A stretch of DNA of 60,163 nucleotides, the filler included. It is 5 parts of 5 records of this genome, joined end to end, with 100 filler letters (N's around TTAATTAATTAA, not from the genome) between each part and the next. Parts side by side here need not be neighbours in the genome. Positions count along the whole stretch, not along the records: positions 40,836 to 52,089 come from DRR723986_14723; 4 more parts are not named here. One strand, 5' to 3'. Shown here piece after piece: positions 40,836 through 44,949 of the stretch (the first letter of the stretch is position 1; every line of letters starts with the position of its first letter). The translations under genes were made by a program, and so were the position numbers. Below the pieces are notes generated by a model. It worked only from the letters and a program-made list of their open reading frames with translations, ran no database searches and had not been told where the DNA came from.

Positions 40836-40915
40836 AGACACAATGCCGCACCCCCTTGGGGGTATCTCCGCCGGGTGGGCCACCGGGCTTAGCAGCGGAT
40901 TCACTTGCCAACTAC

Positions 40916-40954
40916 CGCACCGCTGTGGTGCAATCACTGCCCTTTTTTTGGGCA
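40916..40954. promoter_or_regulatory. Two tandem NtrC-like binding sites upstream of gdhA
   Basis: CGCACC-GCTGT-GGTGCA (40916-40932) and TGCCC-TTTTTTT-GGGCA (40938-40954), against the NtrC consensus TGCACC-N5-GGTGCA; centres 22 bp apart. Confidence 0.7.
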
Positions 40955-41003
40955 CCGCATTTCCCTGCGACCTTCAATACGCGTATTCCGAGGGCATGAC
41001 ACC

Positions 41004-42353
41004 ATGACTGCAAAACTCGACGAAAAGCTGGAACCGATCTTTCGGGACGTTCTTCATCGCAACCCGGGTGAGAAAGAATTCCACCAGGCGGTTCACGAAG
41101 TACTGGAAACCCTGGGGCCCGTGCTGGTGAAGTACCCGGAGTTCGCGGACAAGAAGATCATCCAGCGCATCTGCGAACCCGAGCGCCAGATCATCTTCCG
41201 TGTGCCCTGGCAGGACGACAGCGGTGAGATCCACATCAACCGAGCATTCCGTGTCGAGTTCAACAGTGCTCTTGGCCCCTATAAAGGTGGCATGCGTTTC
41301 CACCCATCTGTTTACCTCGGCATCATCAAGTTTCTGGGCTTCGAACAGATCTTCAAGAATGCCCTGACCGGACTGCCCATCGGCGGTGGTAAAGGCGGCA
41401 GCGACTTCGACCCGAAAGGCAAGTCGGACGACGAAATCATGCGTTTCTGCCAGAGCCTGATGACCGAACTGTATCGCCATTTGGGCGAGTACACCGACGT
41501 TCCCGCCGGTGACATCGGCGTCGGTGGCCGCGAGATCGGCTACCTGTTCGGCCAATACAAGCGCATCACCAACCGCTACGAATCCGGCGTATTCACCGGC
41601 AAAGGCCTGGACTGGGGCGGCAGTCGCGCCCGTACCGAGGCCACCGGTTACGGCACCGTGTTCTTCACCCACGAAATGCTCAAGGCTCGTGGTGACTCCC
41701 TGGAAGGCAAGACCGTGGTGGTGTCAGGCTCCGGCAACGTAGCCATCTATGCCATCGAAAAATGCCACGAACTGGGCGCCAAGGTAATTGCCTGCTCCGA
41801 CTCCCAGGGCATGATCGTGCATGAGAAGGGCATTGACCTGCAGACGGTCAAGCGCATCAAGGAAGTGGAGCGCCGCCGCATCAGCGCCTACACTGAATAC
41901 CACAAAGACGCCAGGTACGTGGAAGACGGCAACATCTGGAGCGTTCCGTGTGATGTGGCCCTGCCTTGCGCCACCCAGAACGAACTCAACGGCAGCGATG
42001 CCAAGACCCTGGTGGAAAACGGCTGTATCGCAGTTGCCGAAGGCGCCAACATGCCGACCACGCCGGAAGGCATCATCATCTTCCAGGACGCCAAGATTGC
42101 TTACGGCCCGGGCAAGGCCGCTAACGCCGGTGGTGTTGCAACTTCCGCCCTGGAAATGCAGCAGAACGCCAGCCGCGATTCCTGGACTTTCGATTACACC
42201 CAGAAGCGCCTTGAGGAAATCATGATCGATATCCACAAGAACTGTTACGAGACCGCCGCAGAGTTTGGCGCTCAGGGTAACTATGTGCTGGGCGCGAACA
42301 TCACCGGGTTCCTTCGCGTAGCCAAGGCTATGACCGCCATGGGCGTGATCTGA
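41004..42353 (+). CDS. gdhA: NADP-specific glutamate dehydrogenase
   Basis: [55 protein letters not shown] and KAANAGGV. Confidence 0.96.
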
Positions 42354-42360
42354 TCACGCC

Positions 42361-44949
42361 ATGACGCACCAGCAGCCTCAGCAGACCACAGACCGGGTGT
42401 CCACCGGACTGCCCGGTCTGGATGAGGTGCTGGATGGCCTGCGAATCGGCGACAATGTTGTCTGGCGGGTCTCCGATCTGGACGATTACCGCCGATTCGT
42501 TCTTCCCTTTCTGGATGCTGCCGCCGACGCCGGCCGGCAGATCATCTATCTCCGCTTCGGCGAGCATCCGCCGATCATTGACCAGCACCCTGCGGTGCGC
42601 ACCATCACTATTGATGCCCTCGGCGGTTTCGAGAGTTTTACCAGCCGGGTCTGGCACCTGATCGAACAACATGGCCGCGGCGCCTTCTACGTTTGCGACA
42701 GCCTGAGTGAGCTACTCAATGCCTGGGCCACCGACGCCATGGTGGGCAATTTTTTCCGGGTAGTGTGTCCCTTCCTGTTCGAACTGGATACCGTCGCCTG
42801 GTTCACCCTGCACCCGGACCGACACTCCCGGATGACCCTGGACCGGATTCGCCAGACCACCCAGGTGCTGATTGATGTACACCGCCACGGCGACGATGTG
42901 CAGATTCATCCCATCAAGGCCTGGCGCCGGCAATCACCGACCATGTTCCTGCCCCATCGGGAACAGGCTGGCCAGTTCTGGCCGATTACCGACAGCAGCG
43001 ATGCCACCCGCTTGCAGGCCTCGCTGGAATCCGGGCACCTGCATCGCCAGCCACTGCTGGATTACTGGGACAGACTGTTCCAGGAAGTCAGCCGGGCCGT
43101 TTTTGAACAGGACCAGACCTGCATGCCTGATCTGCAGGAGCAGGTTCTGCAAGTGATGATCAGCCGCGACCCCAAGATTCTGGAACTGGCCCGGCGCTAC
43201 CTGACTCTGGAGGATCTGCTCACCATTCGCAGCCGTCTGGTTGGCAGCGGTTATATTGGCGGCAAGGCCACAGGCATGCTGATTGCCCGGAACATTCTGC
43301 TGAAAGATGCGCCTGAACTCTGGCAGCCGAATCTGGAACCCCACGATTCCAGCTACCTGGGCACCGACGCCTACTACGCATTTCTGGTCCACAACGGCCT
43401 GTGGCCGGCAATCATGCGACAACGCTCACCAGAAGGTTATCTCAGTGAAGCACCCGCCCTGCGCAAGGCCATCCTGACCGGGCAATTCCCGGCGGAAGTC
43501 CGTTCGGAGCTGGAACGCCTGCTTGACCATTACGGCCAGTATCCCATCCTGGTGCGCTCATCCAGCCTGCAGGAGGATGGTTTCGGCAACGCCTTTGCCG
43601 GCAAATACGACAGTGTCTTCCTGATCAACCAGGGGGCACCGGAACAGCGACTGGCGGAACTGGAAGATGCCATCCGCCAGGTCTACGCCTCGTCCATGAG
43701 CGACGACGCTCTGGTGTACCGTAAACAACGAGGCCTGGATCAGCGCGAGGAACCCATGGCCCTGCTGATCCAGCGGGTAAATGGCCGTTTCCATGGCCGC
43801 TACTACCTGCCCGATGCCGCGGGCGTTGGCGTGTCCAGAAACACCTTTGCCTGGGACAGCACCATGGACCCGAAAGCGGGCATGGTCCGCCTGGTTATGG
43901 GGCTGGGCACCCGGGCCGTAGACCGGATTGAAGGCGACCACGCCTGCGTGATGGCGCTGGATCATCCCGGCCGGCAACCTTTCCGCAACCCGGACGAACA
44001 CTATCGATTCTCCCAACATCTGGTGGACCTGCTCGACCTGCAGGAGGGCCATCTGGAAACCCGGCCCCTGAGCCAGTTACTGGACACCGTTCAAGATCTG
44101 CCCATGGCCCAGATGGGCGAAATCGACCGTGCCGCCAGTACCCGGGCGGAACAGATTGGGCTGCCAGGGCCTGTCTGGCGACTGACCTTCCGGCCGCTGG
44201 TTCAGTTCAGCTCATTCATTCAGCGGCTGTCATCTCTGTTATCTACCCTGGAGGCCGGCTATCAGCATCCCGTGGATGTCGAGTTCACCCTGCATATTGA
44301 TGAACAGGGCGAACCCTCCTTCAATCTGGTTCAGTGCCGGCCACTGGCCACGATTGGTGAAACCGGTCCGGTCACACTGCCGGAACATCTGCCCGCGGAG
44401 CGAGAGATTTTCCGCACCCAGGGCCACTTCATGGGCGGCAACATCAATCTGGCGATTACGCGGATTATCCGTATAGATGCGGCGATCTACGCCAACCTGA
44501 ATATCAATCAGCGTTACGATGTGGCCCGACGTGTCGGCGAGGTGGTTCGGGAATCCAGCGCCAGCACCCTGCTGATTGGTCCCGGACGTTGGGGCACCAG
44601 CAGCCCGGAGCTGGGCGTTCCGGTCAGGTTTGCCGATATTGCCGGCGTCAGCGCCTTGGTGGAGGTATCGGAGAATGCCGGCGACATGGTGCCGGATCTG
44701 TCCTACGGTTCCCATTTCTTCCAGGATCTGGTGGAAACCGGTATTGCCTATGTGGCGCTGTTTCCTGAATCAGACCAGTGCCGCTACCGACCTGACCTTC
44801 TGCCCGGCGAAATCTCCCAGCCTGACAACGCCAGTGACATTGAGCGCGCCGTCCGGGTATATGTCACCGACCAGACACCCCTGCAACTGACCGGTGATGT
44901 GGTTCGGCAGGAACTGGTGTGCTATCGGCCGGTTGACCCGAAGCAATAG
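42361..44949 (+). CDS. PPDK/PEP-synthase-like ATP-grasp protein with N-terminal degenerate KaiC/RecA-like domain
   Basis: N-terminal RVSTGLPGLDEVL; IGGKA, VRSSSLQEDG...AFAGKYDS, MALLIQ, GLGTRAV, DVEF and LVQCRP; no PEP/pyruvate TIM barrel. Confidence 0.85.
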   Translation: MTHQQPQQTTDRVSTGLPGLDEVLDGLRIGDNVVWRVSDLDDYRRFVLPFLDAAADAGRQIIYLRFGEHPPIIDQHPAVRTITIDALGGFESFTSRVWHLIEQHGRGAFYVCDSLSELLNAWATDAMVGNFFRVVCPFLFELDTVAWFTLHPDRHSRMTLDRIRQTTQVLIDVHRHGDDVQIHPIKAWRRQSPTMFLPHREQAGQFWPITDSSDATRLQASLESGHLHRQPLLDYWDRLFQEVSRAVFEQDQTCMPDLQEQVLQVMISRDPKILELARRYLTLEDLLTIRSRLVGSGYIGGKATGMLIARNILLKDAPELWQPNLEPHDSSYLGTDAYYAFLVHNGLWPAIMRQRSPEGYLSEAPALRKAILTGQFPAEVRSELERLLDHYGQYPILVRSSSLQEDGFGNAFAGKYDSVFLINQGAPEQRLAELEDAIRQVYASSMSDDALVYRKQRGLDQREEPMALLIQRVNGRFHGRYYLPDAAGVGVSRNTFAWDSTMDPKAGMVRLVMGLGTRAVDRIEGDHACVMALDHPGRQPFRNPDEHYRFSQHLVDLLDLQEGHLETRPLSQLLDTVQDLPMAQMGEIDRAASTRAEQIGLPGPVWRLTFRPLVQFSSFIQRLSSLLSTLEAGYQHPVDVEFTLHIDEQGEPSFNLVQCRPLATIGETGPVTLPEHLPAEREIFRTQGHFMGGNINLAITRIIRIDAAIYANLNINQRYDVARRVGEVVRESSASTLLIGPGRWGTSSPELGVPVRFADIAGVSALVEVSENAGDMVPDLSYGSHFFQDLVETGIAYVALFPESDQCRYRPDLLPGEISQPDNASDIERAVRVYVTDQTPLQLTGDVVRQELVCYRPVDPKQ

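Follow-up and report, generated by a model that had tools for sequence, protein, structure and literature searches.

In a Marinobacter genome, the gene for NADP-specific glutamate dehydrogenase (GDH), gdhA, is followed almost at once by a gene whose product shares a nucleotide-binding domain with phosphoenolpyruvate (PEP) synthase, and the locus raises the question of what such a protein does beside an enzyme of ammonium assimilation. The choice between GDH and the glutamine synthetase-glutamate synthase (GS-GOGAT) route is a textbook branch point of that pathway, and to our knowledge no dedicated protein-level regulator has been established for the common hexameric bacterial NADP-GDH. The pair lies on contig DRR723986_14723, which occupies positions 40,836 to 52,089 of the window, a 60,163-nucleotide stretch stitched together from five parts. 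We describe here this second gene, called the partner gene below. Its linkage to gdh is real and strong, and its product probably assists or regulates ammonium assimilation in a way that has been overlooked.

The product of the upstream gene scores 775.5 bits against NF006929 (cut-off 536), which qualifies it as NADP-specific GdhA, and it contains both ELFV domains (PF02812, E 1.3e-49; PF00208, E 4.1e-91); GdhA copies encoded beside a partner in other Marinobacter are 94-97% identical to it. The gdhA frame spans 40905-42353 on the plus strand and stops with TGA (42351-42353). A preliminary description of this DNA had the pair begin at 40905, which is just the earliest TTG in that frame; because the NF006929 alignment begins at residue 39 of that frame, the true start is probably the in-frame ATG at 41004 (MTAKLDEK...), as judged from the sequence. 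The partner open reading frame (ORF), on the same strand, runs for 862 codons from an ATG at 42361 to a TAG ending at 44949. The same description had remarked on the 7 nt between the gdhA stop at 42353 and this ATG and on the lack of a terminator, and both the raw sequence and a hairpin scan agree: no terminator-like site falls at the junction within the scanned interval of 40837-47200, which holds six such sites altogether against 5.1 +/- 2.7 in shuffled sequence. The 7-nt spacer carries no clear Shine-Dalgarno motif, and translational coupling of the two genes is probable from this layout.

Wherever the partner gene was found in the genus, the pairing is the same. A sample of 101 genomes from the genus of Marinobacter sp. 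ATCH36 yielded a partner gene (E <= 1e-30) in 43 and a GdhA match in 75. Each of the 43 has, directly 5' of the partner gene and in the same orientation, a gdhA that is 88-97% identical. Of 30 Marinobacter loci, 23 share the exact 7-nt spacing (TGATCCnGCCATG-like), which is therefore no accident of one locus and is in keeping with the tight coupling first proposed for the window; another five have 9-17 nt, four of them with GGAG upstream, and in the remaining two the start was left unplaced by the script. In one genome the gdhA beside an intact partner gene (G072:C1:39965-41311) contains an in-frame TAA, and may be a pseudogene or reflect a sequencing error.

For a wider view, neighbour families were assigned by tblastn at the best 80 of 590 confirmed loci, taken from one-genome-per-species contigs. 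A GDH gene is present in the flanks of 33 of these 80 loci, in at least seven phyla, and lies within 300 nt in 24 of the 33. By their record titles, the GDH-linked taxa comprise Gammaproteobacteria (Marinobacter, Methylophaga, Ectothiorhodospira), Burkholderiales, Desulfuromonadales/Geobacteraceae, Desulfobacterales/Syntrophales/Desulfobulbus, Syntrophorhabdus, Planctomycetota (Pirellulales/Phycisphaerae), Actinomycetota (Dermatophilaceae) and Bacillota (Clostridiales/Eubacteriales). When 863 neighbouring ORFs were clustered blind, the four most recurrent groups were GDH, GltB, GltD-like proteins and AmtB. Other neighbours come from the same area of metabolism: GltB at 15 of the 80 loci, GltD at 12, AmtB at 9, NrpR at 7, GlnA and CarA at 5 each, and GSIII, CarB and PyrG at 4 each, so that at least one of ten nitrogen-assimilation families occurs at 55 of them. 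The GDH gene itself is upstream on the same strand in 14 of the 33 linked loci, downstream on the same strand in 4 and convergent in 15. Because the linkage survives three gene orientations, the pattern argues for selection on proximity to GDH rather than descent of a single operon.

Evenly drawn genome samples, which avoid best-hit bias and in which flanks extended 1.5 kb only, gave the same picture. In Bacillota, 33 of 301 genomes matched (E <= 1e-60), and of 14 loci encoding the three-domain form of the protein (the architecture of the Marinobacter protein, described below) nine have GDH and one has GltD alongside. The same sample held 16 loci of paralogs that lack the N-terminal domain (N-less paralogs), with GDH at none and no member of the ten families. 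In the phylum that includes a Desulfuromonas metagenome-assembled genome (G005), 23 of 201 genomes matched (E <= 1e-100) and gave 26 loci, 14 with GDH and 16 with any of the families; in Planctomycetota, 10 of 201 genomes gave 11 loci, three with GDH and four with any family. Pooled, 26 of the 51 three-domain loci have GDH no more than 1.5 kb away, where chance would give about 0.2-0.4% by our estimate for a genome of 3-4 Mb with one or two gdh genes. The GDH linkage is thus confined to the three-domain form (26/51 versus 0/16). A survey of homologous neighbourhoods had been suggested as a check on the original proposal, and enrichment is what it returned, in the best loci and in the evenly drawn ones. 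The suggestion that relatives adjoin gdh in distant phyla holds for Bacillota, at nine of those 14 loci; the loci examined include no Bacteroidota genome.

These counts largely refute the view that there is no functional link, whether through co-transfer and hitch-hiking or because the partner is an ordinary PEP synthase, and we regard it as very improbable. The linkage outlasts rearrangement into three orientations across at least seven phyla, and identity as a PEP synthase was rejected on its own account: the best equivalog model gives 71.8 bits against a cut-off of 883, and PF00391 and PF02896 are both missing. What speaks for this view is that several source records name relatives 'phosphoenolpyruvate synthase' and that the gene is patchy, being found in one of 401 Pseudomonadota genomes (the centre genome itself) and in the 43 of 101 Marinobacter genomes. 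Such a patchy distribution suggests horizontal spread, possibly along with gdhA.

Within Marinobacter, seven genomes have an orthologous gdhA (at least 84% identity) and nothing that matches the partner. In three genomes (G039, G074, G088) gdhA is followed after 81-87 nt by regB-regA, which is the arrangement of the window minus the partner gene. Because regBA sit at this distance behind gdhA where the partner is missing, gdhA-regBA is a conserved frame inside which the partner gene is present or absent, and because gdhA persists without it the partner gene is accessory. In a tree of GdhA sequences the three genomes fall inside groups that carry the partner, and branches with good support require no fewer than two changes, under midpoint rooting only. 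The simplest reading is repeated loss of the partner gene, at least twice in Marinobacter, with gdhA-regBA kept. A further homolog, in G075 (L117, G075:C1 ~2330-5840), is interrupted around residue 310 by an insert of 3.5 kb that encodes three tandem tyrosine recombinases and resembles a recombinase-in-trio element.

In most Marinobacter loci regB follows the partner gene. In the window the gene for the RegB-like kinase begins 49 nt after it and is possibly part of the same transcription unit as gdhA and the partner; its product scores 135.6 bits against NF033792, under the cut-off of 350, and the RegA-like regulator scores 144.3 bits against NF033791, under the cut-off of 250. Contigs from RNA libraries span the gdhA/partner junction in four of four runs from three studies (X1, 41511-42683, with 0 differences; X2, 41959-42773; X6, 41915-42445; X7, 40940-42675) and the partner/regB junction (44949/44999) in three of the four (X1, X2, X6). 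Such contigs are silent on strand, on transcript ends and on whether one transcript is involved, and DNA was possibly present in the libraries; the bridges are compatible with an operon gdhA-partner-regB-regA, or co-transcription, and no more. The proximity of regB-regA, together with the NrpR genes that separate the family member from gdh at several loci of Syntrophorhabdus and Syntrophales, would suit a component of nitrogen- or energy-status signalling that acts on regulators such as the RegB/RegA-like pair, PII or NrpR. The regBA context is specific to Marinobacter, however, and regBA stay beside gdhA after the partner is lost; no DNA-binding or receiver domain was detected in the partner protein. 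A role of this kind strikes us as quite improbable.

The partner was at first taken for a PPDK_N-only protein. That description does not hold, as a KaiC-like N-terminal domain and a histidine-bearing C-terminal domain are also present. An AlphaFold2 model built from a 46-member alignment has a mean predicted local distance difference test score (pLDDT) of 90.1 and a predicted template modelling score (pTM) of 0.90. In Foldseek searches of the PDB, the N-terminal domain matches KaiC (7s65_B, E 4.7e-10) and FlaH (4yds, TMt 0.66), which points to a RecA-like fold; by Pfam, the N-terminal ~300 residues match nothing except DUF7090, at E 0.015. The fold is that of the KaiC and FlaH (ArlH) ATPases of the RecA superfamily, and a Walker-B-like Asp113 is nearly invariant. 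Unlike those ATPases, the partner has no Walker A motif: GxxxxGK[ST] occurs in the N region of none of the 46 aligned family members, and the P-loop position is taken by a conserved G30-D31-N32. Because this loop is missing, the N-terminal domain is classed from its sequence as a pseudo-ATPase.

The central domain is the only part of the protein assigned to a Pfam family, PF01326 (PPDK_N; residues 298-668, E 1e-45, 156.9 bits against a cut-off of 27). Its closest solved structures are rifampin phosphotransferase (Rph; 5hv1, E 3.3e-15) and PEP synthase (2ols, E 3.8e-10). Across the family alignment G300, G301, R399, S400, S401, S402, E405, D406, K415, E641, Q658 and R660 are invariant and K302 is nearly so; we take the invariant residues to be the nucleotide and Mg motifs of PEP synthase, and on this evidence the ATP-grasp site is apparently intact. 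The ATP-grasp domain and the RSSSxxED...AGKY and E...QxRP-type residues are common to the histidine-dependent dikinases (PpsA, pyruvate phosphate dikinase and Rph; 5hv1, 5fbs). The partner scores far under the cut-offs of all NCBIfam equivalogs for PEP synthase, Rph and pyruvate phosphate dikinase (PPDK). Identity as an Rph was considered and rejected, as NF041857 gives 46.8 bits against a cut-off of 999 and covers only residues 366-473.

The C-terminal domain is the least familiar part of the protein. Residues 664-862 have zero Pfam matches even at E up to 10. G742 and R743 (of the GPGRWG motif), G752, E768, S781, G783 and H785 are invariant, and the codon of His785, within S781-x-G783-x-H785, is at 44713-44715. 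Modelled alone, the 198-residue domain reaches a pLDDT of 92.7 and has H785 at the start of a helix (by DSSP). Its top structural match by VIA-align is a DRTGG domain (Z 6.9), followed by the PPDK phospho-carrier domain 2fm4 (Z 5.9), Enzyme I 2wqd (Z 5.8), the extra C-terminal domain of Bacillus pyruvate kinase 2e28 (Z 5.8), Rph 757-867 (Z 5.6) and maize PPDK 377-511 (Z 5.4); all of these lie below Z 8, a range the tool calls common. A Foldseek search of the PDB with this domain returned nothing at E <= 0.001, and a search of the ESM Atlas returned only fragments of the same family. By sequence it is not PF00391, since hhalign of 57 C-terminal domains against 14 PF00391 domains from five genomes gave a probability of 0.45%. 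Given the fold that recurs among the weak matches, the position of the domain and the placement of H785 at a helix start, the domain is a candidate divergent swivelling phosphohistidine domain.

The partner therefore resembles the dikinases in part. Like it, Rph has a C-terminal alpha/beta domain with a histidine at a helix start. Unlike the dikinases, the partner has no PF00391 signature, no PEP/pyruvate barrel (no Pfam match to PF02896, and the chain stops after the C-terminal domain) and no detectable rifampin-binding domain of the Rph type, while it has gained a pseudo-KaiC N-terminal domain and sits in the context of nitrogen assimilation, not gluconeogenesis or antibiotic resistance. Another parallel is VadK (Rv1127c) of Mycobacterium tuberculosis, which is reported to be a PPDK-derived regulatory histidine autokinase that autophosphorylates and binds enzymes of the methylcitrate cycle (PMC13400623). 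Both proteins are dikinase relatives minus the pyruvate/PEP half, and VadK could serve as a working model for the partner. The parallel is incomplete: VadK is reported to derive from a true PPDK, whereas the histidine-bearing domain of the partner is not recognisable as PF00391, and the partner differs in its added KaiC-like domain and in its pathway, ammonium assimilation.

Taken together, gdhA and the partner form a conserved two-gene module. We tentatively favour, with a confidence that falls short of even, the reading that the partner is an accessory protein that uses ATP to regulate the formation of glutamate. The ATP-grasp domain would bind ATP and hand a phosphoryl group to His785 of the C-terminal domain, as in the histidine-dependent dikinases; the enzyme would then control the glutamate-forming step of ammonium assimilation, here GDH, with the pseudo-KaiC domain acting as a docking or sensing module. 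What the data show is the gene pair and its conservation, the linkage across phyla to GDH and to further genes of ammonium assimilation, the domain layout and the intact residues of the ATP site; that the protein uses ATP, that His785 is phosphorylated, that the action is one of regulation and not of metabolism, and which target it has are all things that we infer.

The chief competitor is a small-molecule dikinase or kinase that would phosphorylate a metabolite of the glutamate/2-oxoglutarate node, or a nitrogen compound, through a His785 relay. The nearest solved structures, Rph 5hv1 and PEP synthase 2ols, are small-molecule phosphotransferases, conservation between phyla is very high with many invariant residues in the C-terminal domain, and the association with enzymes of one metabolic node is constant. 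On the other side, searches revealed no counterpart of the rifampin-binding domain or of the PEP/pyruvate barrel; lineages that retain gdhA can do without the gene; and we know of no such missing reaction in the GDH or GOGAT pathways. We consider this alternative somewhat unlikely. A regulator is preferred to it because no substrate domain is present, the gene is dispensable and in one genome interrupted by an insertion, the N-terminal domain is needed for the GDH linkage, the neighbours vary within one pathway, and VadK offers a precedent.

Several observations weigh against the regulatory reading. The mean column identity across phyla is 41%, which would suit a metabolic enzyme equally well. 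None of the ten nitrogen families occurs at 25 of the 80 best loci; 14 of these 25 offer about 5 kb or more to left and right alike, and the other 11 have a short flank to one side or to both. Family members also adjoin GOGAT, GS, AmtB, CarAB and PyrG, many with no GDH in view, so GDH need not be the target. When 34 GdhA sequences with a partner were set against 13 from Marinobacter without one (49-71% identical), only I52, I107 and S207 separated the two groups, S207 being present also in three of the 13 unpartnered copies, and none is convincing as an acceptor site. The C-terminal domain is not a PEP-utilizers domain by sequence, and its structural matches are all weak. ATP turnover, histidine phosphorylation and contact with GdhA are predictions only. 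A complex prediction of GdhA (449 aa) with the N-terminal domain (1-297) scored 0.00 in two runs made without controls or family alignments, and speaks neither for nor against binding.

The same observations bear on a more specific proposal, that the partner directly modifies GdhA by passing the phosphoryl group from His785 to a GdhA residue and so turns the hexamer on or off. In both surveys GDH far outnumbers every other neighbour, the partner gene of Marinobacter never occurs without an adjacent gdhA, and only the form with the pseudo-KaiC domain shows the linkage. Against this stand the many members found beside GOGAT, AmtB or GS with no GDH in their flanks, the want of a residue specific to partnered GdhA, and the persistence of gdhA where the partner has been lost; we judge direct and specific modification of GdhA unlikely. 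A bolder version of the regulatory reading is that the family is the missing post-translational controller of NADP-GDH, a pseudo-KaiC-scaffolded, ATP-driven phosphohistidine enzyme that would dock on the GDH hexamer (on GOGAT in other lineages) and switch between ATP-free GDH and ATP-costly GS-GOGAT according to energy charge. This is speculative and, in our estimate, distinctly unlikely as a whole. Acid-labile phosphorylation of the Escherichia coli NADP-GDH was reportedly described in the 1990s, in accounts that our literature search did not retrieve.

The coordinates of the locus are collected in the table.

Features of the gdhA-partner locus of Marinobacter; positions count along the window
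Feature	Position	Strand	Basis
gdhA, NADP-specific glutamate dehydrogenase, 449 aa (probable start)	41004..42353	+	NF006929, PF02812, PF00208
Intergenic spacer tcacgcc, 7 nt	42354..42360	+	raw sequence
Partner, KaiC/FlaH-like alpha/beta domain and helical linker, residues 1-297	42361..43251	+	Foldseek
Partner, PPDK_N ATP-grasp nucleotide-binding domain, residues 298-664	43252..44352	+	PF01326, Foldseek
Partner, C-terminal alpha/beta domain, residues 665-862, GPGRWG and GSH motifs	44353..44949	+	conservation, model
RegB/ActS/PrrB-like sensor histidine kinase	44999..46270	+	NF033792 (sub-cut-off), PF25323, PF02518
RegA/ActR/PrrA-like response regulator	46273..46806	+	NF033791 (sub-cut-off), PF00072, PF02954

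Upstream, the window has a joint between contigs, marked by the run of N around the TTAATTAATTAA linker at 40737-40836. The first codon of the gdhA frame (TTG 40905) is just past this joint, and the ATG at 41004 is 167 nt into the new contig. An ORF of the IF-2B family resembling mtnA (39842-40736) is truncated by the joint; because the joint intervenes, neither it nor the DNA before it is the true neighbourhood of gdhA. A terminator-like hairpin with a T-run lies at 40925-40949, about 55-80 nt 5' of the gdhA ATG; it probably ends an unseen upstream gene, leaving little space for a gdhA promoter. Downstream of regA, a PAS-PAS-GGDEF-EAL protein of 709 aa is encoded at 47050-49179, and at least one other Marinobacter genome (L111) has a relative, 64% identical, behind regA.

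The family to which the partner belongs is very large and uncharacterised. A HMMER search of 1.84 billion cluster representatives (50% identity) returned 3973 proteins at E <= 0.001, 745 of them at E <= 1e-30, and in a word-indexed search 7733 of 8000 scored candidates had E <= 0.001; the top matches are Marinobacter proteins labelled 'PEP/pyruvate-binding domain-containing protein' or 'phosphoenolpyruvate synthase'. Variants of ~600-780 aa have no KaiC-like domain. Among the N-less relatives are proteins of ~1060-1650 aa (P0219, P0237, P0238, P0249, P0259, P0188) with an NTP_transf_2/Pol-beta nucleotidyltransferase after the histidine-bearing domain, a class that includes protein-nucleotidylating regulators. 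Tandem forms of ~1460-1509 aa (P0092, P0097 and others; for example in Geobacter sp. OR-1) consist of an N-less unit of ATP-grasp and C-terminal domain followed by a complete three-domain unit. At four Planctomycetota loci (L011, L016, L018, L030) an ORF of ~520 aa directly precedes the three-domain gene in the same orientation; a crude single-linkage clustering grouped this ORF with the family, and it may be a paired paralog. Targeted literature searches found no publication on the partner family or on its pairing with gdh. In a paper on nitrogen regulation in Geobacter, gdhA is mentioned 59 times and 'phosphoenolpyruvate synthase' and 'dikinase' not at all (PMC2995071).

Roughly half of the sampled three-domain loci, across several phyla, have gdh next to them. 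With thousands of representatives, an apparently intact ATP site and an invariant histidine, the family is a concrete candidate for a regulator of NADP-GDH; alternatively, it may be an unknown enzyme at the same node of ammonium assimilation. Marinobacter offers natural controls, with sister lineages that have the gene, lack it or carry it interrupted.

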